Shown here: positions 6,564 through 64,000 of the stretch, piece after piece
Numbering within the stretch: the first letter of the stretch is position 1
Layout: each line of letters begins with the position of its first letter
IMG/VR virus record: IMGVR_UViG_3300010356_003454
Coordinates: 72,820 to 136,819 of that record
Direction: 5' to 3' (one strand)
Source of the DNA: a virus
Lineage: Duplodnaviria > Heunggongvirae > Uroviricota > Caudoviricetes
Length of the DNA: 64,000 bases
Made by a program: the position numbers and the translations under genes
Notes under the pieces: model-generated
What the model saw: only the letters and a program-made list of their open reading frames with translations
The model's database searches: none
Told to the model about the DNA's origin: nothing

Positions 6564-8006
6564 ATGATTATTTCAATTGAGCAAAGACAGTCCAAATTAA
6601 TTGTTTCCCATATTAATAAAGAGGGAAATCTTGCTTATATGCAATTGAATATTCCTGTTTCCCATCAGTATTCCTATGTCTATTCAAAAAGTGCTGCAGG
6701 TGCTTTGCACGGAATTAAATCTTGGGATGGTAAACCTGTTAGAAAGGTTCCTGCTCCGTTTCTTTCCAGGCATCGTATTCAGGAATTTTTTATGGATGCG
6801 GGTGATCAATTAACGGCTCCTCTTTTCGAAAGAAATATGCCTAATCTATATTCTTGCGATATAGAGGTTGATGTAACTGATGATGGATTCGCAGAAGCTT
6901 CTGATGCTCGAAATAGAATTAATTCAATTGCTTGGTCTCATTATCCTGATGTAACAGTCTTTGGCCTGAAAGATTTATCAGGAGAACAATGTAACGAAGT
7001 CGAGACCGAAATAAACAATCACTTAAAACCTATTGGAAAGGAGTATAAGTTTGTTTATAAGAAGTATGAGAGCGAAAGCGATATGCTTTATGATTTTCTA
7101 TATAATTATGCTCGTCATGCTCCCCTAATTACTGGATGGCACTTTTGGAATTACGACTGGAGGTATATCTATAATAGGTGTAAGCGTCTTAATTTGGATA
7201 TTTCTTGGATGTCTCCGACTCGTCAGTGGTATAAGCATAAAATTATGGATCGGAACAACAGGGCTGATATATTTCTCCCCCAGCATAAGCTTATAGTTGA
7301 CTATATGGAGATTTATAAGAAGTGGGATAGGGTAATTGATCCAAAAGAGAATAACTCGTTAGACTTCGCTGCAGAGGCCGCATTAGGCATCACAAAAGTT
7401 AAGTATTCTGGAACATTTCAGGATCTCTATAGGGATTATCCTAAACATGTTTTCTACAACGCTATTGATACAATTCTTGTTGAGGAGATACACAATAAGC
7501 TAAAGACCATGGAGACATTCCTCGGTCTTGCTAATATCAATAGAGTTGAGGCAATGAATGCTTTTTCTCCTATTGCCATGCTCGAAGCAACGGCAACAAG
7601 ATATGCTTATAAAAGAGGCCTAGTTTTTCCAAAGGGCAATTTTGATAAAACTCGTGAGGATTATGAAGGGGCATTTGTATTTAAACCTACCCCCGATTTA
7701 TATGGTTGGGTGGCTGCTTTTGACTATGCTTCTCTTTATCCAAGTATTATGAGGCAGTTTAAGATTTCAATGGAAAATTTTGTGGGAAAGAATAAAGACT
7801 ATCAACCAAAACCTCATGAGATAAAATGTTCAAGCGGAGCTATTTTTGATGCTTCGGTAGAACCACTTCTTCCAGAGATACTTACTGATTACTATGCTCA
7901 GAGAAAGGAGGCTCAAATGATTGCCAAAAAAGCTGAGATTGAGGCTAATGAATTGAAAATGATCCTTAAAAAACGACTTAGTTCTGCACAAAAATCATTA
8001 TCTTAA
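6564..8006 (+). CDS. family B DNA polymerase, N-terminal part (3'-5' exonuclease + motif A only)
   Basis: Exo I is CDIEVDV, Exo II is WNYDWRYI and Exo III is YNAIDT. Pol motif A is FDYASLYPSIM, as in T4/RB69 gp43. The ORF ends about 95 aa after motif A and has no motif B (KxxxNSxYG) or motif C (YGDTDS). Confidence 0.75.
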   Translation: MIISIEQRQSKLIVSHINKEGNLAYMQLNIPVSHQYSYVYSKSAAGALHGIKSWDGKPVRKVPAPFLSRHRIQEFFMDAGDQLTAPLFERNMPNLYSCDIEVDVTDDGFAEASDARNRINSIAWSHYPDVTVFGLKDLSGEQCNEVETEINNHLKPIGKEYKFVYKKYESESDMLYDFLYNYARHAPLITGWHFWNYDWRYIYNRCKRLNLDISWMSPTRQWYKHKIMDRNNRADIFLPQHKLIVDYMEIYKKWDRVIDPKENNSLDFAAEAALGITKVKYSGTFQDLYRDYPKHVFYNAIDTILVEEIHNKLKTMETFLGLANINRVEAMNAFSPIAMLEATATRYAYKRGLVFPKGNFDKTREDYEGAFVFKPTPDLYGWVAAFDYASLYPSIMRQFKISMENFVGKNKDYQPKPHEIKCSSGAIFDASVEPLLPEILTDYYAQRKEAQMIAKKAEIEANELKMILKKRLSSAQKSLS

Positions 8007-10692: not shown

Positions 10693-10718
10693 GGCCTCGA
10701 AAAATCCGGGGCTTTTTT
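10693..10718 (+). terminator. rho-independent terminator
   Basis: ggcctcg-aaaaat-ccggggc hairpin followed by TTTTTT. Near-identical to the terminator at 63456. Confidence 0.55.
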
Positions 10719-27324: not shown

Positions 27325-28164
27325 ATGGAGATAGGTTATATTTATGCGATAATTAATAAAAGGAATGGTAAATTTTATTTTGGCAAAACCTTTGATATTC
27401 AAAAAAGGTGGAAAAAACATGTTTTTAATGCTACTAAAAAAATAAATCGAAAACTTTATGATTCTATGAATTCATATGGTTATGATTATTTTTCTATTCA
27501 TCAAATTGGAATATACAAAGCAGAAAATAAAAATGAATTAACTAAGATACTAAATGAAAGGGAAAGATACTTTATAAATTTTTCTGATTCTGTTTTACTT
27601 GGCTATAATATGGCTCCTGGCGGGGATGGCGGATATTTAGGGGAGGAAGCTATACAAAAGATATCAAATAAAAAGAAGGGAATAAATTTAACAGAGGAAC
27701 ATAAAAAACATATTTCAGAAGGGAATAAAGGGATTTCAAAAATAGTATCGGAAAAAACAAAGAACAGGATTAGAAAAACTTGTAAAGAAAAAGGAATAAA
27801 ACCGCCGGCACAATATTGGGGAAGACCCGGATATAATGAACATCCGATGCTAAATAAGCATCATACAGAAGAAGCCAGAAATCTGATGAGTCAATATAGA
27901 TCCGGGAAATCCTATGAAGAAATTTACGGAAAAGAAAAAGCAAAGAAATTGAGGTTGGAAAAATCAAAAAGATGGATGGGAAATAAAATAAACTTTAAGG
28001 AAGTAGATTTAGAATTAGCAGAAAATCTTCTTCAGAAAGGAAAAAATTATAAAGAAGTCGCAAAATTTTTAGGAATTAGTTTAACAACATTTAATTATAA
28101 ATTTCGAGAAAAACATAACATAACACCGTATCAATATAGTTTAAATTTAAAAATAATGTCATGA
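27325..28164 (+). CDS. GIY-YIG homing endonuclease
   Basis: MEIGYIYAIINKRNGKFYFGKT (canonical GIY-YIG). NUMOD3-like LTEEHKKHIS. C-terminal HTH-like region. Confidence 0.75.
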   Translation: MEIGYIYAIINKRNGKFYFGKTFDIQKRWKKHVFNATKKINRKLYDSMNSYGYDYFSIHQIGIYKAENKNELTKILNERERYFINFSDSVLLGYNMAPGGDGGYLGEEAIQKISNKKKGINLTEEHKKHISEGNKGISKIVSEKTKNRIRKTCKEKGIKPPAQYWGRPGYNEHPMLNKHHTEEARNLMSQYRSGKSYEEIYGKEKAKKLRLEKSKRWMGNKINFKEVDLELAENLLQKGKNYKEVAKFLGISLTTFNYKFREKHNITPYQYSLNLKIMS

Positions 28165-42840: not shown

Positions 42841-43056
42841 ATGGAAGATCGATGGTACACATATAAAGAAATCCTCCAATTATTTGGGATCTGTAAGCAG
42901 ACTCTTTATAACTGGAGGAATAATGGTACTATCGAATACAAAGAAATTACTAAAAAGACTTTCTTGTATAAGCTTCCAAAAGAGAAAAATATTCAAAAAA
43001 ATGGATTACAAGAAGATTTACGAATCGATAATAGCGAAAGCAAAGAGCGAGAATAG
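42841..43056 (+). CDS. Xis/MerR-like HTH DNA-binding ORF
   Basis: YTYKEILQLFGICKQTLYNWRNNGTI is HTH_17-like. The last 56 nt overlap the HNH gene in the +1 frame across an A7 run. Confidence 0.4.
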   Translation: MEDRWYTYKEILQLFGICKQTLYNWRNNGTIEYKEITKKTFLYKLPKEKNIQKNGLQEDLRIDNSESKERE

Positions 43057-43696
43057 GAATAAGGGAAATGGAATTTATTATGAATCTCATCATATAGTTC
43101 CAAAATGTCTATGTGGATCAGATACTAAAGATAATAGAGTTCTTTTAACGGCTAAAGAGCATTTTGTTTGTCATAAGCTACTGGCAAGGATTTATCCAGA
43201 TAGTAATGGTATACGATTTTCGTTCTTTTTAATGTGTCAATCCAGCGATAATCAAGAAAGATATCAAATTTCCTCCAGAGATTATGAATATGCTTGTGAA
43301 TTAAATCGCCAAGCTTGTTTGGGAAATAGATGGAGAAGAGGAAAGAAAGCTCCTCATTCGGAGGAAACTAAAAAAATACTAAGCAAACATTTTTCGGAAC
43401 ATCTACCAAAATATGCTTTTAAAAAGGGAATGATTCCTTGGAATAAAAATACATTAACAGAGGATCAGAAGAAATATATTAAAGAGCATACATTATCGAT
43501 GGAATATATTTCTAAAAAATTTGGGATATCCAAAAGACAAGCAGGAGATTTAAAACATGGACATATAGATGGAAAAAGATTGGGAGTTACTGAAAAAGAT
43601 ATCCAATATATCAGAGAGCATACTCAAAATTGTGTTCAAATAGCTAATAAATTTAAAACAACTCAGAGAATTGTGAGTATAATTAAAAATAGTTAA
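43001..43696 (+). CDS. HNH homing endonuclease
   Basis: YESHHIVPKCLCGSDTKDNRVLLTAKEHFVCH is an HNH motif. Confidence 0.6.
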   Translation: MDYKKIYESIIAKAKSENRNKGNGIYYESHHIVPKCLCGSDTKDNRVLLTAKEHFVCHKLLARIYPDSNGIRFSFFLMCQSSDNQERYQISSRDYEYACELNRQACLGNRWRRGKKAPHSEETKKILSKHFSEHLPKYAFKKGMIPWNKNTLTEDQKKYIKEHTLSMEYISKKFGISKRQAGDLKHGHIDGKRLGVTEKDIQYIREHTQNCVQIANKFKTTQRIVSIIKNS

Positions 43697-50798: not shown

Positions 50799-51617
50799 AT
50801 GCTTAAAAGAAATTGTCCATATTGTGATGCTGAAATTAAATATAGGAATGAAAAATCCTATAAATTTGCTATTAAGAATGAATCTGTTTGCAGGAGCTGC
50901 TCCGGGAAAATCAATACGTGGAATATTAGATTAAAGAACGGGGAAGCTAAAAATCCTTTTTTAGATAAAAACCACTCTAAAGAAGCTATTCAAAAAATGA
51001 GAGATTCACGGGCATCCAGGTCTGAAAAATATAAAACAGATGAATTTAGAAAAAATGTTTCTAAAGTAACTTCCGGAGAAAGAAATCCAATGTATGGAAA
51101 GAATTTAATGGATACTTGGATAGAAAAATATGGATTAGAAGAAGCATTAAAAAAGGAGAAAAGACGGAAACAAAAATTATCAAAAGCTTTTTCGGGGGAT
51201 AAAAATCCAATGTACGGTAGGGAAACCCCTAAAAAATCAGGTAAAGGAATTTCTGGCTGGTATGGAAGTTTTTATTTTAGAAGTTTGCATGAATTGAAAT
51301 TCATAATTTCCTGCGAACGATTCGGGTTAGAAATTTTATCTGCGGAGGACTTAAAAATACCATATAAAAATTATGATGGAACGGATAGAACATATTCTCC
51401 AGACTTTATTGTAGATAATAATTTTTTAGTTGAGGTCAAACCAAAAAAACTTTTCAAAACACCCTCTAATTTATTGAAATTTGATTCCGCAAAAAAATAC
51501 GCTTTAGAAAATAATTTAATCTTTAAAGTATTGGATTTTGGAATAATACTCAAAGATGAACTTAATAGATTGATAGAGTCGCAAGCAGTAAAATTAAATG
51601 TTGAATATGACTTATAA
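50799..51617 (+). CDS. putative homing-endonuclease-like nuclease (Zn finger + NUMOD3 repeats + C-terminal PD-(D/E)xK-like)
   Basis: CPYCD...CRSCSG Zn finger. Repeated NPMYGK/NPMYGR (NUMOD3). C-terminal SPDFIVDNNFLVEVK is PD...ExK-like. Confidence 0.4.
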   Translation: MLKRNCPYCDAEIKYRNEKSYKFAIKNESVCRSCSGKINTWNIRLKNGEAKNPFLDKNHSKEAIQKMRDSRASRSEKYKTDEFRKNVSKVTSGERNPMYGKNLMDTWIEKYGLEEALKKEKRRKQKLSKAFSGDKNPMYGRETPKKSGKGISGWYGSFYFRSLHELKFIISCERFGLEILSAEDLKIPYKNYDGTDRTYSPDFIVDNNFLVEVKPKKLFKTPSNLLKFDSAKKYALENNLIFKVLDFGIILKDELNRLIESQAVKLNVEYDL

Positions 51618-55970: not shown

Positions 55971-57074
55971 ATGAATTACACACTTGATTTTATCAGAAAG
56001 AATAATCTCATTATTTTTGAAGCAATAATGGGATCGCATGCATACGGAACCAATATTGAGACTTCGGATAAGGATATCCGAGGGGTCTTCATTCAGCCTC
56101 TTGAAGACATTCTTAAGTATGGATATAAGGATCAGGTTGCTGATAAGACCAACGATATTGTCTTTTATGAACTGAAGAGATTTCTCGGACTGGTTAAGAC
56201 TAATAATCCTAACATCCTTGAGCTCCTTAATGCTCCTGCAGATTGTATTATCTATAAGAATTCTCTTTATGATCTTATCGCTCAGAATGCTCGTCATTTT
56301 GTTACGAAGAAGTGCCGCTGGACTTTCGCTGGTTATGCTATCGAGCAGATTAGGAAGGCAAGGGGATACAACAAGATGATGAACTGGGAAGAATCTAAGA
56401 TGACCCGAAAGGGTGTTCTGGATTTCTGCTACATTATTGAAGGGGGAGAGACCATACTCCTTGAGGAATGGATCAGAAGAACCGGTAGAAATACAGAAGG
56501 ATCCCTCTTCAGCGATCAGAGAATGCTTGCTCTTGCAAAGATCGATCACGCTCATGACATTTATGCAGTTTATGATCTTAGTAATTTCAAGGGTCTTTAT
56601 GGAGTTGTTGGAAAGGAGAATGCAAATGATGTTCAGCTTACCTCTATCCCTAAGGGACAAAAGGTCGTTGCTATCCTTACTTTCAATAAGGACGCATACT
56701 CAACTCATTGCAAGAATTATCTGGCTTACCAGACTTGGCTGAAGGAGAGGAATGAGGATCGTTTCAAGATGAACAAGGCTCATGGTAAGAACTATGACTC
56801 GAAGAATATGATGCATACCTTCCGTCTTCTTAACATGGCTCTTGAGATTGCAGCTACCGGAGAGATAAGAGTTCGTAGATCAGATGAAGAAAGAGAAAAG
56901 CTTCTTAAGATCCGTCATGGCGAATACGATTATGATCTTCTTATCGAAGAAGCAGAAGATATGATCAAGGATCTTGATCGTGCATTCGATCAGTCTTCTC
57001 TTCCTGATAAAATTCACGATAGCTTTATCGCTAATCTTGAATATGAAATCAGAGAAAAAAGATATGGTCTTTAA
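55971..57074 (+). CDS. Pol-beta-superfamily nucleotidyltransferase (PF10127-like 'predicted NTase')
   Basis: MGSHAYGTNIETSDKDIRGVF matches the G[SG]...D.D NTase-fold signature. Confidence 0.5.
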   Translation: MNYTLDFIRKNNLIIFEAIMGSHAYGTNIETSDKDIRGVFIQPLEDILKYGYKDQVADKTNDIVFYELKRFLGLVKTNNPNILELLNAPADCIIYKNSLYDLIAQNARHFVTKKCRWTFAGYAIEQIRKARGYNKMMNWEESKMTRKGVLDFCYIIEGGETILLEEWIRRTGRNTEGSLFSDQRMLALAKIDHAHDIYAVYDLSNFKGLYGVVGKENANDVQLTSIPKGQKVVAILTFNKDAYSTHCKNYLAYQTWLKERNEDRFKMNKAHGKNYDSKNMMHTFRLLNMALEIAATGEIRVRRSDEEREKLLKIRHGEYDYDLLIEEAEDMIKDLDRAFDQSSLPDKIHDSFIANLEYEIREKRYGL

Positions 57075-57088
57075 CACACTTTTAACAC

Positions 57089-57116
57089 CCGGGATTTTTT
57101 AATCTCGGGTTTTTTC
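57089..57116 (+). terminator. rho-independent terminator in a conserved module
   Basis: cccgggat/atctcggg stem followed by TTTTTT, then CTTTATATTAGC. Confidence 0.5.
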
Positions 57117-57145
57117 TTTATATTAGCAAAATAAAATACAATCTT

Positions 57146-57733
57146 ATGAAATTCAATAACAGACCTAACATAGCTCATAAAGTTGGAGATCGAATTGTCT
57201 GGGAATCTCGCTCAGTAGCCGTCAATGGAGTAGTAATACTCTATGTCCCCGGTGAAAAGGTTCCTTATGTTCTTGTTTCAAAGAGGGGTCCAAAATCAGC
57301 CGATTATCAGGGATATATGAATCTTATTGCAGGCTATATGGACTGGGACGAATCAGGTCCTGAAGCCCTTTACAGGGAAGCATGGGAAGAAGTAGGTCTG
57401 GATCTTAGAGAATTCGCTTATCCGGAAAAGGATGGTCAGGACTCTCCATTCTGGAAGGATGTTATAAGCAATGATCTTGAACAACCTTGGCATGTTAAAA
57501 CAGAGCCAGACGAAAATCGTCAAAATATTTCCTTAAGGTATGGATTAGCAGTTAGGATGAAAGCTAATATTCTGCCTGCTCTATCTCTGGAAAATAATGA
57601 GGTCGAGGGAGAAGTCGAACATGCTGGATGGCTTCCAGTTAATGAATTAGATCATTATCAGTGGGCCTTTGATCATGATAAAGTTATTAAAGAATATCTC
57701 GTCAGAATAGGCGATCATATTTGTAATTATTAA
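57146..57733 (+). CDS. Nudix hydrolase
   Basis: Nudix box GYMDWDESGPEALYREAWEEVGL (Gx5Ex7REuxEExGu). Confidence 0.65.
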   Translation: MKFNNRPNIAHKVGDRIVWESRSVAVNGVVILYVPGEKVPYVLVSKRGPKSADYQGYMNLIAGYMDWDESGPEALYREAWEEVGLDLREFAYPEKDGQDSPFWKDVISNDLEQPWHVKTEPDENRQNISLRYGLAVRMKANILPALSLENNEVEGEVEHAGWLPVNELDHYQWAFDHDKVIKEYLVRIGDHICNY

Positions 57734-57775
57734 AACTTCTTCGTGGGTTCCTTCTAAAATATACAAAAATACTTT

Positions 57776-58729
57776 ATGAGTGCTATAAATGAACTCTTTA
57801 CCGAGAAGTTTCGTCCTAAAAATCTGAGCCAATTAATTGTTCCGGAGAGGATCAAAGCCCAATTGAATAAAGGTCTGATTCAGAATTTACTTCTTCATGG
57901 ATCTGCTGGAACCGGGAAAACTTCAACTCTTTTTATACTTGCTGAAGGTCATCCGACTCTCTATATTAATGCCTCTTCAGAAAGGGGCATCGATACTATT
58001 CGAGAGAAGATATCCAGCTTTTGCTCGACTATCTCATTAGAGGGCGGTAGAGAAAATCTTAAATGTGTTATACTTGATGAGCTTGATGGAGCTACAGAGG
58101 AATTCTTTAAAGCTCTTCGTGCTGTTATGGAGAGATATTCCGCAACGGCTAGATTCATAGCTTCCTGCAATTATCTTCAGAAGATTCCAGAGCCTATAAG
58201 AGAATCGCGATTCCATTCAATATCTTATGATCCTGTTAATAAGGAGGAAGAGGATTATTTGGTAAAGGAATATGCTAAACGAATTGCTGCTATACTTCAG
58301 GCTGCGAAAATTGAATATAAGCCAGAAGTTCTTCTTAAATTCATTAAGAATGATTTCCCCGATTTAAGAGCTCTCATGAATAAGATTCAGGCTCTTTATC
58401 TAAGAGGAGTCAAGACACTTGACGAGACTAATTTCAATACTAATTTCGATTTTAAAGATCTTTTCGATCTATGCCTGAATACATCTTCAAAACCATATGA
58501 TAATTATAAATTTATAGTTAATCAGTATGGATCTAGAATTGATGATTCCCTTGCAGCACTAGGAACTGATTTTCCCGAATATCTCAAGAGTGTTGCTCCA
58601 GCTAAAGAGGATAAGCTTCCACTTGTTCTAATAGCAGTGGCTGAATATCAATATCAGAAACCCTTTGTTATTGATCCTTTGATAACGTTGCTAGCAGCAG
58701 TTATGAAGATTCAAATGATACTAAAATAA
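57776..58729 (+). CDS. clamp-loader AAA+ ATPase (RFC small subunit / T4 gp44-like)
   Basis: Walker A is HGSAGTGKTS. DExD box is ILDELDG. SRC-like ESRFH. Confidence 0.65.
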   Translation: MSAINELFTEKFRPKNLSQLIVPERIKAQLNKGLIQNLLLHGSAGTGKTSTLFILAEGHPTLYINASSERGIDTIREKISSFCSTISLEGGRENLKCVILDELDGATEEFFKALRAVMERYSATARFIASCNYLQKIPEPIRESRFHSISYDPVNKEEEDYLVKEYAKRIAAILQAAKIEYKPEVLLKFIKNDFPDLRALMNKIQALYLRGVKTLDETNFNTNFDFKDLFDLCLNTSSKPYDNYKFIVNQYGSRIDDSLAALGTDFPEYLKSVAPAKEDKLPLVLIAVAEYQYQKPFVIDPLITLLAAVMKIQMILK

Positions 58730-58780
58730 AACCCATAGGTGCTAACTTTAAACATATCTTTTTGGATATATAGAATAAAA

Positions 58781-59539
58781 ATGTATTACGTATATCAGTT
58801 AAGCTCTAAAAAATATGGAATTTTTTATATCGGAAAAGGAAAAGGTTCTAGAATGTATCAGCATGTCTCATTAGCTAAGGGAAAATCGAATCGAAAAAAT
58901 AATAATCCCCATCTTTATAATAGGATTATTAAAATACTAAATGATGGTGAAAAAATACAATATAAAAAACTTTTTGAGTCTGATATTGAAAAAAAATGTT
59001 TAGATAAGGAAAAAGAATATATCTCAGATATTGGAACATTTCATAAAATCGAAGGAATAAAACGGGGTCCGCTATTAAATCTAACAGCCGGTGGGGAAGG
59101 GTCCTCTGGATATATTCACTCTTCATTATCAAAGAAAAAAATTAGTGATTCTTTGAAAGGAAAATTAAAGGGTAGAATATTTCATAAGGATTCTTTAAAA
59201 AGAATGAGTTTAGCTAAGAAGGGAAAACCCTCAGGGAACAAAGGAATTTCTCATCTCGAAAGATTAATTAATGTTTATGGGGAGAAAGAAGGACACAAAA
59301 AATATTTCTTATTTTTGGAGAAACAACGAAAATCCCATCTAGGAAAAAAAATGAAAGGAAAAGTCTGGAATAAGGGCTCTAGCATTTCGGAAGAAACAAG
59401 GAAAAAGATACAAAATTCTTTATTAGGTAAAAAACATAAAATGAATATAGTTAAATGTCCTCATTGTGGATTAGAAGGATCCGGCGGAAATATGACTAGA
59501 TATCATTTTAATAACTGCAAATCTTTAACAAAAATTTAA
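58781..59539 (+). CDS. GIY-YIG homing endonuclease
   Basis: MYYVYQLSSKKYGIFYIGKGKGSR. NUMOD3-like repeats. C-terminal CPHCG...NNC Zn finger. Confidence 0.7.
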   Translation: MYYVYQLSSKKYGIFYIGKGKGSRMYQHVSLAKGKSNRKNNNPHLYNRIIKILNDGEKIQYKKLFESDIEKKCLDKEKEYISDIGTFHKIEGIKRGPLLNLTAGGEGSSGYIHSSLSKKKISDSLKGKLKGRIFHKDSLKRMSLAKKGKPSGNKGISHLERLINVYGEKEGHKKYFLFLEKQRKSHLGKKMKGKVWNKGSSISEETRKKIQNSLLGKKHKMNIVKCPHCGLEGSGGNMTRYHFNNCKSLTKI

Positions 59540-59602
59540 CAATATTCTTATGAATTTGATTTCTCTTTTAATTATATTTGGGAACTTATAAAAATAATTT
59601 CT

Positions 59603-60757
59603 ATGACTAATGCGATATTTGATTTAAGTAACATGTTTTTCCGCTCGCTTTTTATCGTGGGCGGATACGGAAAGAAGCAATATACTTTTGATTCACAAAG
59701 AGAGCAAGACCAGCTCATGCGTAAAGTCGCTACTGATATAACATCCGTTATCAGATCCATAAATCCCTCTCGTGTTATCTTTGCTCTTGATTCCAAATCT
59801 TGGAGAAAGAGTATTTCGATTGATGAGAATGAGGGATATAAAGGTCATCGTAAAAAATCAGAGGTTATTAATTGGGACAATATCTATAAGATAATGGCCG
59901 AATTTGCTGAAATAGTTAAGACCAATGGTTTTATCGTCTCTCAGATTGATAATGCGGAGGCGGATGATCTAATGGCTCTATGGAGGGATGAATTACTCTA
60001 TAATCAGAATCAGCATGTTGTTTTGGTATCTGCGGATGAAGACGTTCGCCAATTAGCTGATTCTATTTCTTCCCCCAAAAAAGCTTTCTCTATAATATAC
60101 AATCCTTTTACCCAGGGTAAGAATTCGTCTAAAAAACTCTTTGTACCAGATGGATTTAGGGATTGGCTTAATGATGAAGATGATATTGGGGACATTTTCA
60201 ACAGATCCATTGATGTTGATAAGGAAGATTTTAAGAGGATATTGAATGATAAGGTGAATCTGGAAGAAGTTGATGGAAAGGAAATTGCTTTGCGTAAGAT
60301 CTTCTGCGGAGACGATGGTGATAATGTCCCCTCTATTTACACCTGGCTCAATGATAAGGGTAAAGAGGTTCGTATCACTAACAAGCCATATCAAAAAATC
60401 ATTGATTATATTGGGGCTAAGGATTGGAAGGATCTCATGGAGAAATCAGAGATCATATTTGACCAACTTATCGAGGTATCCGGTCAGAAGCCATCTTTTA
60501 AAATGGATAAGAGACTCGAAAGACAGGCAAAATTGGTTGTCTTGGATAAATCACTATTTCCATCTGAAATCGTAAATGCTTTTGCTGAGCATATTAGAGA
60601 GGATTATGCAGGGAATCATATTAGTCCTCAGACTTGGAATATGATCTCAATGCTCGAAGGAACTCGTTATGTTGATCCCAAAGGTAGGGTATCCTCAGGT
60701 AATGAGGCATCTATATTTGGCCAAATCGATCGTATATCCAATAAAGAACTCTTCTAA
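59603..60757 (+). CDS. rnh: 5'-3' exonuclease / flap endonuclease (T4 RNase H-like)
   Basis: NAEADDLMA acidic cluster and overall FEN/53EXO organisation. Length 384 aa. Confidence 0.7.
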   Translation: MTNAIFDLSNMFFRSLFIVGGYGKKQYTFDSQREQDQLMRKVATDITSVIRSINPSRVIFALDSKSWRKSISIDENEGYKGHRKKSEVINWDNIYKIMAEFAEIVKTNGFIVSQIDNAEADDLMALWRDELLYNQNQHVVLVSADEDVRQLADSISSPKKAFSIIYNPFTQGKNSSKKLFVPDGFRDWLNDEDDIGDIFNRSIDVDKEDFKRILNDKVNLEEVDGKEIALRKIFCGDDGDNVPSIYTWLNDKGKEVRITNKPYQKIIDYIGAKDWKDLMEKSEIIFDQLIEVSGQKPSFKMDKRLERQAKLVVLDKSLFPSEIVNAFAEHIREDYAGNHISPQTWNMISMLEGTRYVDPKGRVSSGNEASIFGQIDRISNKELF

Positions 60758-61245
60758 TGGCAAGTATGGATCTATATTTAGATAGATTAGAGGTCTTTGC
60801 GAATACTGCAAAAGAACTTCATGAGAAACATAAAAACAATCAGAGAATGAAAAACGAATACAAAGTTCTTAAACTGAATGAGCTCGGCCCTCAATTAGGT
60901 CTTCCCTCTAGTAAGGGATATAAGACTTCTGATTATCTGGAGCTAGTCATTCAGAAAATTGAGGCAAGTGGATATGCCTTTGTTCAATTTCTTCAGCTTA
61001 TTGATGTCTTATATGTCATAATTAATACAGCGGGAAAACTCAATTATGTTAATCTTCCCCCCGAAGAATTTAATCCGGAGAAGGAGATCAGAGACCATTA
61101 TAATCCAAAGCCTTCATCTGGTAAGAAGAAAAAAGAAGAGCCTGTTGAGGTTCATGAAGAATTCCAAAAGGCAATGGAGGTTGTTAAGGATCGCGAAACT
61201 CTTCAAAAGAATATGCATGGAGTGAAGCTCCCCTGGAAAAAATAA
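60757..61245 (+). CDS. hypothetical protein
   Basis: The start overlaps the upstream stop. Confidence 0.35.
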   Translation: MASMDLYLDRLEVFANTAKELHEKHKNNQRMKNEYKVLKLNELGPQLGLPSSKGYKTSDYLELVIQKIEASGYAFVQFLQLIDVLYVIINTAGKLNYVNLPPEEFNPEKEIRDHYNPKPSSGKKKKEEPVEVHEEFQKAMEVVKDRETLQKNMHGVKLPWKK

Positions 61246-61271
61246 TTATCAACATCTAAATACAAATAACA

Positions 61272-61796
61272 ATGATTAAAATCTATTTTGTTTTCTTAAT
61301 TATCGGTTTTCTTGGCCTGCTCTCCTCGATGATATTCGGAGGAGATCATGATGCTGATTTAGCCGATGGATCTCTGGACTCTGGAGACACCTTCGACGAT
61401 AGTCCGAAGGTATTCTCTCTTAGAGTCATCTTCTCGTTCCTCATGGCTTTTGGCATTGGAGGAAGCGCAGTCTATTTGGGAGAGGGAAATATCTTTACTC
61501 AAATACTTGTGGGACTTGCAGCCGGTTTGGCAACAGGGGCTTTTACCTGGTGGCTTACTAAGATCCTTTATAAGCTTCAAGGAGCTAGCAATGTTGACTC
61601 TGATTCCTTTATAGGAATGAAGGGAGATATTGTTGTAGGAACTACGGAAAGCGGGAAATCAAAAGTTAGGTTAAATACCTCTTCCGGTCCTATGGAGTTT
61701 CTTTGCAAAGAGTCTAAGGGTAAAAAGCTGAAAATCGGAGATATTGTAGAGATTTCAGAAAAAGCAGGAACTCTTCTTGTCGTATCCAAGAAATAA
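61272..61796 (+). CDS. NfeD-like membrane protein (YuaF-like)
   Basis: Three TM helices plus a C-terminal OB-like beta domain (GMKGDIVVG...KVRL...GDIVEI...VV). 174 aa. Confidence 0.5.
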   Translation: MIKIYFVFLIIGFLGLLSSMIFGGDHDADLADGSLDSGDTFDDSPKVFSLRVIFSFLMAFGIGGSAVYLGEGNIFTQILVGLAAGLATGAFTWWLTKILYKLQGASNVDSDSFIGMKGDIVVGTTESGKSKVRLNTSSGPMEFLCKESKGKKLKIGDIVEISEKAGTLLVVSKK

Positions 61797-61834
61797 AATT
61801 AATGAACATTTATAAACATTTAAACACTTAAATT

Positions 61835-63433
61835 ATGGAATTTTTTCTTTTAGGAGTAATCGTTTTCGGCGGTATCGTACTAATTGGTTCTTTGCTAGCA
61901 TTCGTGTCTAAGAACTATATCAAGATCCCGCCCAACACAGCAGCCGTTATTTTCGGTCGCAAGAAAAATGTCGAGGTTAAGAATCCCGACGGAACTGTAA
62001 CTAAGGTAGCAAAGGGCTATCGTGTCATCGCTGGAGGTGGGGTATTTAAGATCCCTGTTATAGAGAGTGTAGAATTTATGAACCTCTCAAACAGATCTCT
62101 GGTGGTTAATGTTAAAAATGCACCTAATAAAGATGGGGTTATGACAACTATCGAAGGAGTTGCCAACGTGAAATTCTCATCGGAATCTAATCTACTTCGC
62201 GTAGGTGTTGAGAGATTCCTCGGTCGTCCGGACGATGAAGTTAATAAGATTATCCTCCAGAACCTCGAGGGTCACTTACGTGCCGTTGTTGGTCGTATGA
62301 CTATGGAACAACTTATCGGTGATAAAACCGCTCTAAACTCTGCTGTACTTGACGAGGCAAATGAGGACTTCAGCAAGATGGGTATAGAGATCGACTTTAT
62401 CAATATCCAGGATATTTCCGATAACGATAGCTATATTATTAACCTCGGTCGTAAAAGAGCAGCTGAAATCGCAAGAGATGCTGATATTGGAGAGGCAGAA
62501 GCGAAGAGGGATGCTCTGAAGAAGACTTCAGAAGCTGAAAAAGCGGGTATTGAGGTTGCTAACACGAACCAGGAAAGGATTTATGAATCCAATAAGGCAA
62601 GGGACGTAAAAGAGGCAGAAATGAAAGCTCTGACCGATACTCAGCGAGAAATTGCTAATCAGGCTGGACCTCTTTCTCAAGCTCAGGCTCTGAAAAACGT
62701 TGTTGAGGCTCAGGCTGCAACAGAAGCTGCTCAGGAAAAGGCCTTGGTACAGGTTGAAATAAACCGTGCTGAAAAAGAAGAGAAGAGATATATTGCTGAG
62801 GTTGTTGTACCTGCTGAAGCTCGCAAGAGGGAAAAAGTTATTCAGGCAGAAGCGCAGAAAGACGCTCTTGTTATCGAAGCTGATGGTATTCAGGCTGCTA
62901 CTGTTAAAAAGGCAGCCGGCGAAGCTGATGCAGTTCTTTTGGCTAAGAAAGCAGAAGCAGAAGGCCAGGCTGCTATCGTAAGAGAAGCTGGTCTTGCAGA
63001 AGCTGATGCTATTAAGGCTAAGCTACTTGCTGAAGCAGAAGGTATCAAGGAAAAAGCTAAGGCTTATGCTGCTCTTGACCAGACTGGTAAATTCCTTGAA
63101 GTACTTAACGCTCTTCAGACACTTGGTCCTAATGTTATCAAAGAATTCGCAGGAGTTATGTCAGCTGCTACTGCTCACCTTGGAAACATCAAGGATGTCA
63201 AGGTCATCGACTTTGGCGGAAATGGTGCTGGCGGAGGATCAAGCGTTGGTAAGTTCGGAACCATCCCGGTGGAAGTTCTTACTAAAATGTTCGAAGGACT
63301 TGGCGGCGCAGGATTTGATGCATCAAAGCTCTTCAGCTTCCTCGGAATCAAGCCGGAAGATCTTCTTAAGAAAGATTCTCCTGCTACAGATTCAAAGGAG
63401 ACCCCATCTCCAAAGGAAACTCCTAAGAAGTAG
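61835..63433 (+). CDS. SPFH/Band-7 flotillin-like protein
   Basis: N-terminal TM plus SPFH domain. Long A/E-rich coiled coil (EA repeats). Flotillin/YqiK-like architecture. 532 aa. Confidence 0.75.
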   Translation: MEFFLLGVIVFGGIVLIGSLLAFVSKNYIKIPPNTAAVIFGRKKNVEVKNPDGTVTKVAKGYRVIAGGGVFKIPVIESVEFMNLSNRSLVVNVKNAPNKDGVMTTIEGVANVKFSSESNLLRVGVERFLGRPDDEVNKIILQNLEGHLRAVVGRMTMEQLIGDKTALNSAVLDEANEDFSKMGIEIDFINIQDISDNDSYIINLGRKRAAEIARDADIGEAEAKRDALKKTSEAEKAGIEVANTNQERIYESNKARDVKEAEMKALTDTQREIANQAGPLSQAQALKNVVEAQAATEAAQEKALVQVEINRAEKEEKRYIAEVVVPAEARKREKVIQAEAQKDALVIEADGIQAATVKKAAGEADAVLLAKKAEAEGQAAIVREAGLAEADAIKAKLLAEAEGIKEKAKAYAALDQTGKFLEVLNALQTLGPNVIKEFAGVMSAATAHLGNIKDVKVIDFGGNGAGGGSSVGKFGTIPVEVLTKMFEGLGGAGFDASKLFSFLGIKPEDLLKKDSPATDSKETPSPKETPKK

Positions 63434-63455
63434 TTTTATAATCCGTTTATCTAAA

Positions 63456-63482
63456 GCCTCGGAGAAATCCGGGGCTTTTTTT
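63456..63482 (+). terminator. rho-independent terminator
   Basis: gcctcgg-agaaat-ccggggc hairpin followed by TTTTTTT. Near-identical to the terminator at 10693. Confidence 0.55.
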
Positions 63483-63568
63483 AACGGTTTTTTAACAAAT
63501 AATTTAACCAAGATAAAGGTTTTTTTATTAAATTAGAACTCTAAAGTTATATCTGTGTATAAGATAAT

Positions 63569-63979
63569 ATGGAATTATTCGACCTTATAAAAACGATATT
63601 CGAGGATCCAGATGGATATAAAGAAGCTTCTAAGATCGATAAGAGGAAGAATTTCTTTATGATCAATCGTAGATTCGCTATTGGTCATCCTATGCAAGCT
63701 AATGCCCTTAATAGTCTTAAGATCAATCAGGAACAGGCTATTGATGTATGGCAGAAGTTTATGAGAAAGACCTACAATAAAACCCCGTTTTGGCTCTACA
63801 TTAAAGGGGTGAAGAAGGCAAAAGAAGAAAAAGAAAAAAAGATAAATATATCCACTGCGACTATAGAGGAATATGCTCGTAGACATAATTATGACAGAAA
63901 AACTGTTTTAGAAGCTCTGAATCTATTTCCAAAAGAGATGATTCATGAGCTTCAAACATTTGAAAAGATTGAGAAATGA
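63569..63979 (+). CDS. hypothetical protein
   Basis: ORF. Confidence 0.35.
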   Translation: MELFDLIKTIFEDPDGYKEASKIDKRKNFFMINRRFAIGHPMQANALNSLKINQEQAIDVWQKFMRKTYNKTPFWLYIKGVKKAKEEKEKKINISTATIEEYARRHNYDRKTVLEALNLFPKEMIHELQTFEKIEK

Positions 63980-64000
63980 AAGAGGCTAGAGTTAATGATC

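Follow-up and report, generated by a model that had tools for sequence, protein, structure and literature searches.

A flotillin and NfeD-type gene pair kept in the replication module of a clade of uncultured huge phages

The window analysed here, a stretch of 64,000 nucleotides (nt) from the IMG/VR virus record IMGVR_UViG_3300010356_003454 (Caudoviricetes; positions 72,820 to 136,819 of that record), carries close to its 3' end two adjacent genes that encode an NfeD-like membrane protein of 174 amino acids (aa) and a flotillin of 532 aa. By sequence comparison, the pair is an old core cassette, inherited vertically since the ancestor of a phage clade, and is not a recent capture from a host, because the phage flotillins are monophyletic, have diverged together with core genes under purifying selection, and have only distant cellular relatives. 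Our best overall explanation, to which we assign a probability of about 0.55, is that this vertically kept SPFH2-NfeD2 pair is a phage-made membrane scaffold co-expressed with the replication genes. The proteins themselves are canonical; what is new is their genomic setting and evolutionary pattern.

The flotillin and its NfeD-like partner

A preliminary description of the window, made from the sequence alone, had proposed an nfeD-flotillin operon and had made the SPFH assignment of the larger protein depend on support from profiles. Both open reading frames (ORFs) were recovered on the plus strand with the positions and lengths given there (Table 1), and profile support was found. Pfam Band_7 (PF01145) matched residues 30-224 over profile positions 2-175 of 176 (E = 3.3e-26; 92.9 bits against a cut-off of 23.6), and the Flot domain (PF15975) matched residues 388-470 marginally, with 27.7 bits against a cut-off of 27, both scores lying above the Pfam cut-offs. 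Many orthologs of the flotillin have precomputed PF15975 matches. The NCBIfam equivalog model for FloT (NF058507) aligned nearly end to end but scored 208 bits against a cut-off of 700; the protein is therefore a member of the family and not an ortholog of Bacillus subtilis FloT. PHROG 200 matched the SPFH region at 1.9e-10. A phmmer search of Protein Data Bank (PDB) sequences returned flotillin-1/2 at E of about 1e-38, QmcA at 9e-5 and stomatin at 1e-3. An exact-sequence look-up found the window flotillin not on record.

An AlphaFold2 (AF2) monomer model of the flotillin, built from a 47-sequence alignment (predicted local distance difference test, pLDDT, 72), comprises an N-terminal helix (residues 2-27), an alpha/beta SPFH domain and a near-continuous helix over residues 200-446, assigned by DSSP as helices 200-302 and 306-446. 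Foldseek placed the chains of flotillin cages (9bq2, 9l3g) at the top with E of about 1e-21 and prohibitin/HflK at 1e-12; HflK/C, stomatin, QmcA, erlin and vault were among the further matches. Residues 1-27 are strongly hydrophobic (Kyte-Doolittle index up to 2.7) and are followed by Lys/Arg residues. The long predicted helix contains 23% Ala, 13% Glu and 27 EA/AE dipeptides, in agreement with the extended EA-repeat coiled coil proposed earlier, and the tail is Gly-rich and then Ser/Pro/Lys-rich. Profile matches and the modelled fold identify the 532-aa protein as a genuine SPFH2 flotillin.

The NfeD call for the 174-aa protein, also made in the preliminary description, stands on structure and on homology to the partners of cellular flotillins, with sub-threshold PF01957 matches in its orthologs, but not on a significant sequence match of its own. 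Scans of Pfam, NCBIfam and PHROG gave no NfeD call for the protein, and its family profile, run against PDB sequences, returned only chance-level matches to cutinase and TraT and no NfeD. When the alignment of the NfeD-like family (A1, 22 sequences) was compared with proteins encoded directly 5' of cellular flotillins, hhalign aligned them end to end with probabilities of 99.1-99.4%. Phage orthologs matched all 57 positions of the PF01957 profile at E values of 5e-5 to 1.5e-4 (22-24 bits against a cut-off of 29.1), an archaeal counterpart matched it at E 0.028, and several orthologs are annotated by the Joint Genome Institute (JGI) as 'membrane protein implicated in regulation of membrane protease activity'. 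The AF2 monomer model (pLDDT 74) bears out the three helices and OB-like beta domain read from the sequence. Five C-terminal strands (117-122, 130-136, 139-147, 158-165 and 168-173) make up a five-stranded NfeD/OB-like fold that superposes on 3wwv_A, 3cp0_A, 2k14_A and 2exd_A over 59-78 residues, and the whole has the short-form NfeD layout of three N-terminal hydrophobic helices followed by a soluble beta domain. SPFH-associated NfeD proteins have been described as three hydrophobic stretches followed by an all-beta domain, and the YuaF/YqiJ partners of p-flotillins as NfeD homologs poor in sequence likeness and conserved in structure (Hinderhofer et al. 2009, PMC2636767). Modelled structure and homology to cellular flotillin partners identify the 174-aa protein as an NfeD2-type partner. 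With the predicted features of both proteins taken together, the pair is a complete SPFH2-NfeD2 set in which no architectural element of the cellular systems is missing.

In the NfeD-like protein, the loop that joins helices 1 and 2 (aa 23-47; window 61338-61412) is strongly acidic, with 8 D/E and 1 K. Several relatives, both phage and cellular, have a loop rich in Asp and His, for example DHDFDTHFDFHHDFDGHADTDTD (see also loci L005, 7386-7940, and L065, 5423-5947), which looks like a metal- or cation-binding segment, a prediction of low confidence.

Conservation and descent of the pair

An NfeD-like gene lies directly 5' of a flotillin gene not only in the window but in 19 phage loci and 5 cellular loci, the same two-gene arrangement as in bacterial nfeD-flotillin operons and the one ascribed to the pair at the outset. 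Flotillins at least 54% identical to that of the window are encoded on contigs of 199, 263, 316, 323, 343 and 405 kb, and another is encoded on a 376-kb contig. On the phage contigs examined, the gene order is RlaP, NUDIX, clamp loader, RNase H, a small ORF, NfeD, flotillin and orf136, and onward to a glucosaminidase. In the more distant phages L062-L069, which include the 405-kb contig, the pair comes behind the genes for a membrane-anchored glucosaminidase and an HD-domain protein, and its distance from RNase H is ~3.5 kb greater, whereas orf136 and an orf162-like gene remain beside RNase H. Because the pair moved and orf162/orf136 stayed, the mobile, conserved unit is exactly these two genes; orf162 (60757-61245) and orf136 (63569-63979) were rejected as members of the module on this ground. 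Judged by gene content and order, the two-gene cassette is kept in every sampled member of the phage clade.

Full phage-clade synteny was also present on a contig (L006; JAQUND010000001.1, 198,935 bp) of a metagenome-assembled genome (MAG) labelled Candidatus Nanoarchaeia archaeon (GCA_028717785.1), and phage-clade synteny was found on MAG contigs assigned to Eudoraea sp. (L009; CBDTVZ010000292.1) and a Firmicutes bacterium (L010; MWEH01000017.1). The latter two contigs are of 3-4 kb and encode flotillins of 70-75% identity. By their synteny, the 'Nanoarchaeia', Eudoraea and Firmicutes contigs are mis-binned phage DNA.

In a neighbor-joining tree of 143 sequences (L019, L025 and L037, from which wrong ORFs had been extracted, were left out of the displayed tree), the 101 phage-type flotillins formed one bipartition in 198 of 200 bootstraps. 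A gap in identity to the window flotillin accompanies this split, phage-type sequences being at least 52% identical and all others at most 47%. Across the phage loci, flotillins range from 90% down to 54% in identity to that of the window, and this identity correlates with that of the clamp loader (r 0.91, n = 7), RNase H (r 0.94, n = 13) and NfeD (r 0.91, n = 15). Conservation of the flotillin is about that of the clamp loader, exceeds that of RNase H, and is even over the anchor, SPFH domain, coiled coil and C-terminal region. Relative to L059, the closest nucleotide relative, dN/dS was 0.04 for NfeD, 0.09 for the flotillin and 0.09 for RNase H; by these estimates purifying selection on the pair is as strong as on replication genes. 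Phylogeny, proposed in the preliminary description as a means of telling recent host acquisition from an ancient phage lineage, together with co-divergence and dN/dS, shows ancient, vertical descent.

The nearest cellular relatives, in bacteria of the candidate phyla radiation (CPR) and DPANN-like archaea, show 42-47% identity in the flotillin and 26-34% in NfeD, and the tree does not single out a true sister group among them. Contigs outside the phage clade include those of DPANN-like archaea, with the genes beside L21e/S13/S4/S11/RpoD operons, and of one bacterium, beside FtsZ/FtsA/NrdD; a Saccharibacteria MAG contig with ribosomal protein L19 and sequences from Nomurabacteria, SR1 and others also fall outside. 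In the archaeal loci L004 and L008, the neighbourhood of the pair (~4-8 kb) is conserved; it includes a gene for a DUF87 (HerA-like) ATPase and adjoins the S13-S4-S11-RpoD operon, and in one of the two LemA and TPM-domain genes are nearby.

Among 50,697 phage records, the window flotillin matched 10, none at more than 31% identity and several of them very short, unannotated records. GenBank names a 'flotillin family protein' in Vibrio phage KIT04 (LC487410.1; L070, 2686-4356), with an 82-aa ORF upstream, and in phage csAssE-Sib (OR575929.1; L071, 2423-4650), where a 164-aa transmembrane protein is encoded directly 5' of the flotillin and both genes are beside a DnaB helicase and an exonuclease. 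The csAssE-Sib flotillin is 26% identical to that of the window, and its partner is weakly NfeD-like (hhalign probability 26%). At 24-26% identity, the recorded phage flotillins are therefore independent acquisitions, and the csAssE-Sib arrangement, which resembles that of the window, suggests repeated recruitment of the flotillin system by unrelated phages. SPFH proteins have been reported in RaK2-like and Erwinia jumbo phages, where their function is described as poorly understood (PMC7760394, PMC6034870). Thus, the earlier remark that a phage-borne scaffold of this kind is unusual holds for cultured phages, but the RaK2-like, Erwinia jumbo, KIT04 and csAssE-Sib genes mean that it is not unprecedented. 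Our literature search retrieved only incidental mentions of phage flotillins: it found no analysis of a phage nfeD-flotillin operon, no flotillin in the huge-phage papers checked, and no clade-wide analysis of, or function for, the SPFH genes of csAssE-Sib, KIT04, RaK2-like phages, Erwinia phages or PHROG 200. One of these mentions concerns a prophage that integrates into the host floA gene (PMC13245101); others are lists of SPFH proteins in genome papers on jumbo phages.

Transcription unit and source phage

The pair had been described as flanked by a strong terminator whose sequence is nearly identical to one after the ribonucleotide reductase (RNR) gene. The near-identity was borne out, but the terminator lies only 3' of the pair, with none comparable 5'. 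Its core, GCCTCG-N-CCGGGGCTTTT, occurs exactly 2 times in the 64 kb (10694-10716 and 63456-63479) against 0 expected, which places twin hairpins 53 kb apart, one 3' of RNR and one 3' of the flotillin gene. The flotillin-side hairpin folds at -19.5 kcal/mol (z -4.8), and 0 of 200 shuffles folded as well. The two differ by a 1-nt indel, and a fixed-length pattern with 3 mismatches recovered only the RNR copy. The hairpin at 63453 was overlooked by the terminator scan, in which an A-U stem extension consumes the T-run, and was verified by pattern search and folding. This hairpin may be a phage-wide terminator type that marks the ends of highly expressed units.

A gap of 26 nt separates the NfeD-like ORF from the preceding gene, and an AT-rich spacer of 38 nt separates it from the flotillin ORF. 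The terminator scan found no strong terminator between those at 57087-57110 and 63453. With a terminator only 3' of the pair, none that is strong upstream and so short a gap, the pair is, from its position, probably the tail of a unit that starts at the NUDIX-like gene and is co-transcribed with the clamp loader, GIY-YIG, RNase H and orf162 genes. The NUDIX label of the window gene is taken from Pfam matches of its orthologs.

Table 1. Features of the gene pair and its surroundings in the window
Feature	Position	Strand	Basis or detail
NfeD2-type (YuaF/YqiJ-like) membrane protein, 174 aa	61272..61796	+	helices aa 2-22, 50-69, 74-106; beta domain 117-173 (AF2 model)
NfeD C-terminal beta-barrel (OB-like) domain, aa 117-173, predicted	61620..61790	+	AF2 strands, superposition
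Flotillin (SPFH2 / p-flotillin family), 532 aa	61835..63433	+	Pfam, NCBIfam, PDB, AF2 and Foldseek, dN/dS
SPFH/Band 7 domain, aa 30-224	61922..62506	+	PF01145
Ala/Glu-rich helical (coiled-coil) region, aa 200-446, predicted	62432..63172	+	DSSP, composition, PF15975
Intrinsic terminator, GC-rich hairpin and T7 run, ends transcription unit	63453..63483	+	sequence, pattern, fold
Twin terminator hairpin after RNR, outside operon	10694..10717	+	pattern, fold
Upstream same-strand genes: NUDIX-like, clamp loader, GIY-YIG homing endonuclease, RNase H-type 5'-3' exonuclease, orf162	57146..61245	+	Pfam

The window encodes RNR, an NAD-dependent ligase, the clamp loader, RNase H, an RlaP nucleotidyltransferase, a CCA/poly(A) polymerase-type enzyme, methyltransferases, a split family-B DNA polymerase and several homing endonucleases, with nearly all genes on one strand; this gene content makes it an uncultured huge phage's replication module. 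Such genes, and the same synteny on IMG/VR viral contigs of up to 405 kb, confirm that the pair is phage-borne. The window has no close DNA match in 50,697 GenBank phage records, a megablast of 57000-64000 against INPHARED phages being empty. The nearest GenBank phages by protein are the Lak megaphages (polB 39%, clamp loader 47% identity), which have genomes of ~540-550 kb and infect Prevotella.

The family-B polymerase of the window appears split or interrupted, the polB ORF at 6564-8006 (480 aa) covering no more than the exonuclease domain and the beginning of the polymerase domain; a split or interrupted polymerase is known from some T4-like and Lak-like phages. In the replication region, genes for homing endonucleases (GIY-YIG/NUMOD3 and others) are found at 27325-28164, 42884-43696, 50799-51617 and 58739-59539. 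Both the window and L072 have an endonuclease gene between clamp loader and RNase H, where L001, L003 and L006 have none; in relatives such genes also occupy other sites, among them, in L065, the position directly 3' of the flotillin gene. Just beyond the point that corresponds to the window end, 1-3 kb from the pair, relatives encode a glucosaminidase (PF01832) that carries a hydrophobic anchor at its N terminus, and a protein of the papain family (Peptidase_C1) is also encoded a few kb from the pair (L001 13008-13826; L065 4060-4731 and 9035-9811; L002 12955-14647; L072 12749-13540). Both are possible envelope or lysis enzymes.

A Shine-Dalgarno-like motif precedes 4 of 68 window genes (plus-strand ORFs), and over the same 68 ORFs (e.g., those at 57146, 57776, 59603, 61272, 61835 and 63569) the 20 nt 5' of the start codon are 49% A. 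Scarce Shine-Dalgarno sites and A-rich upstream regions are typical of Bacteroidota and their phages. The near absence of such sites and the Lak relationship therefore suggest a Bacteroidota host. A DPANN or CPR host, prompted by the 'Nanoarchaeia' MAG label and by the nearest cellular flotillins, was rejected as unsupported because the synteny of the 'Nanoarchaeia' contig is that of the phages throughout, peptidoglycan glucosaminidases are among the phage gene products, Shine-Dalgarno sites are scarce, and the nearest GenBank phages infect Prevotella.

Possible roles and known systems

As a membrane scaffold, the pair would be transcribed during infection together with the clamp-loader/RNase H block, as its position suggests. 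By analogy with cellular systems, the flotillin would insert its N-terminal hydrophobic segment (residues 1-27) into the host cytoplasmic membrane, with its bulk predicted to be cytoplasmic because Lys/Arg residues follow the anchor, and would form a ring or dome cage on the cytoplasmic face by oligomerisation of its SPFH and coiled-coil/Flot regions. A cage is expected because solved SPFH complexes (flotillin, HflK/C, prohibitin, stomatin, erlin, QmcA-YbbJ) are rings or domes that abut the membrane (PMC12624060). NfeD, held by its three membrane helices, would dock its beta-barrel domain onto the flotillin and be embedded beneath or beside the cage; an operon partnership of NfeD and SPFH proteins has been described (PMC2636767). 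The weakest step is the last, in which the scaffold might reorganise or stabilise the host membrane (how fluid and intact it is and how membrane proteins cluster in it) while a 200-400 kb genome goes through its long replication cycle; the membrane would thereby stay energised and intact until programmed lysis. We prefer such a role in membrane upkeep because flotillins of bacteria affect how fluid the membrane is and how the envelope is synthesised, and SPFH proteins work together with systems for membrane repair (PMC8581546).

Several points weigh against the scaffold. The Flot domain clears its cut-off by just 0.7 bits, and the 174-aa protein of the window has no PF01957 match even at E <= 10. 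Moreover, the acidic loop and odd helix count of the modelled NfeD would allow its beta domain to lie on either side of the membrane. No Lak phage was among the flotillin tblastn matches in the 50,697 phage records; huge genome size alone therefore needs no cassette. A Bacteroidota host is suggested only by the few Shine-Dalgarno sites of the phage genes and by the Lak kinship, and our literature search found no expression, localisation or phenotype work on phage flotillins.

A more ambitious reading would make the cassette an essential, lineage-defining component of an infection organelle, in which a cage built by the virus would tether some phage process to the host membrane or give it a compartment there. 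Such a cage might be a platform for replication or assembly, or a shield against membrane-targeting abortive-infection effectors, and would be the membrane-based equivalent of the chimallivirus 'phage nucleus', which is made of protein; we consider this unlikely, though we place it ahead of the other alternatives. Next in order, and likewise improbable, is control of proteolysis, with the phage cage enclosing or sequestering a host membrane protease such as FtsH and so protecting phage proteins or retuning turnover. Modelled on HflK/C-FtsH and stomatin-NfeD protease pairs, this proposal draws on the presence of HflK/C-FtsH among the structural matches, on the JGI label of the orthologs, which names regulation of membrane protease activity, and on the functional tie of the SPFH1/3/4 families to FtsH (PMC2636767). 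However, SPFH2 flotillins are less firmly tied to proteases than HflK/C, the NfeD of the window is of the short form without a ClpP-type protease domain, and no protease gene is linked, the papain-like peptidase some kb away in relatives not moving with the pair. Behind it comes a function in conflict, either superinfection exclusion, as the preliminary description had suggested, or membrane-repair counter-defence against permeabilising abortive-infection effectors. Clade-wide conservation implies a fitness effect, the SPFH protein YdjI recruits PspA in membrane repair (PMC8581546), and the unrelated csAssE-Sib independently has a transmembrane protein and flotillin beside replication genes. 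Genes of this kind, however, usually evolve fast and turn over, whereas the flotillin evolves as slowly as the clamp loader; the pair does not lie in a variable island, and PADLOC defence models gave 0 matches (E <= 0.01) for the flotillin, the NfeD-like protein and their two neighbours.

Poorer odds again go to an accessory role in lysis or envelope remodelling, with the scaffold organising or timing the nearby anchored glucosaminidase and other envelope enzymes. That enzyme is encoded 1-3 kb away, in L065-type phages immediately before the HD-domain gene and the pair, and loss of flotillin perturbs peptidoglycan synthesis in B. subtilis, according to work cited in PMC8581546. Nevertheless, the order and distance of the glucosaminidase gene vary, no holin was recognised, and the pair shares its unit with replication genes and not with the glucosaminidase, which is outside because the terminator at 63453 intervenes. 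A virion-associated SPFH protein is the least probable alternative of all: proteins with an SPFH domain were detected by mass spectrometry in preparations of Erwinia jumbo-phage virions (PMC7760394, PMC6034870), but the membrane anchor and three-helix membrane partner fit poorly with tailed particles that are without a membrane, and the genes are in the replication module and not among structural genes. Scarcely better is a recently captured host gene carried as a neutral passenger, a moron or auxiliary gene without a phage-specific role. The operon layout is identical to that of cellular nfeD-flotillin operons (PMC2636767), but phage monophyly (198/200), co-divergence with core genes, dN/dS below 0.1 and nearest cellular proteins of just 42-47% identity make this very improbable. 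The two 'cellular' matches at 70-75% are those on the short contigs with phage synteny.

The membrane scaffold thus remains our preferred explanation. Faithful retention of the pair, comparable to that of replication genes, indicates that it probably matters for infection. To our knowledge, flotillin/NfeD systems are universal, poorly understood membrane organisers, and a whole clade of 200-400 kb phages has kept its own copy since the clade originated. This conservation argues that these phages actively re-engineer the host membrane, a nearly unexplored side of huge-phage biology, and demonstration of a phage-specific membrane function would make the observation far more valuable. With its ~100 diverged sequence variants, the cassette also offers a natural, minimal and self-contained two-gene flotillin system for structural and functional work on SPFH-NfeD assemblies. 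In practice, the analysis flags huge-phage contigs mis-binned into archaeal and bacterial MAGs.

Among known systems, B. subtilis yuaF-floT (yuaG) and Escherichia coli yqiJ-yqiK likewise join an SPFH2 p-flotillin to an NfeD2 partner (Hinderhofer et al. 2009, PMC2636767). The window pair differs from them in its place in the replication module of a lytic-type huge phage, in a flotillin that is not a FloT equivalog, and in an NfeD too diverged for PF01957 that carries an acidic loop between helices 1 and 2. The E. coli QmcA-YbbJ complex (PDB 8z5g) is an SPFH-NfeD assembly too, but QmcA is a stomatin-type SPFH1 protein of ~300 aa and not a flotillin, and the window NfeD matches YbbJ more weakly than it matches isolated NfeD C-domains. 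CPR/DPANN-like pairs (L004, L005, L008 and L012), the nearest cellular relatives, have the same adjacency as the window pair; they lie on cellular chromosomes beside ribosomal-protein operons, FtsZ/FtsA or L19, and fall outside the phage clade. The best solved match in both sequence and structure is eukaryotic flotillin-1/flotillin-2 (PDB 9bq2 and 9l3g), a 44-subunit cage that, at ~25-29% identity, shares with the window flotillin an SPFH domain, a long helical wall and a C-terminal cap region. Eukaryotic flotillins, however, attach to the membrane by lipidation and a hydrophobic SPFH face, with no N-terminal transmembrane segment and no NfeD partner (PMC12624060).

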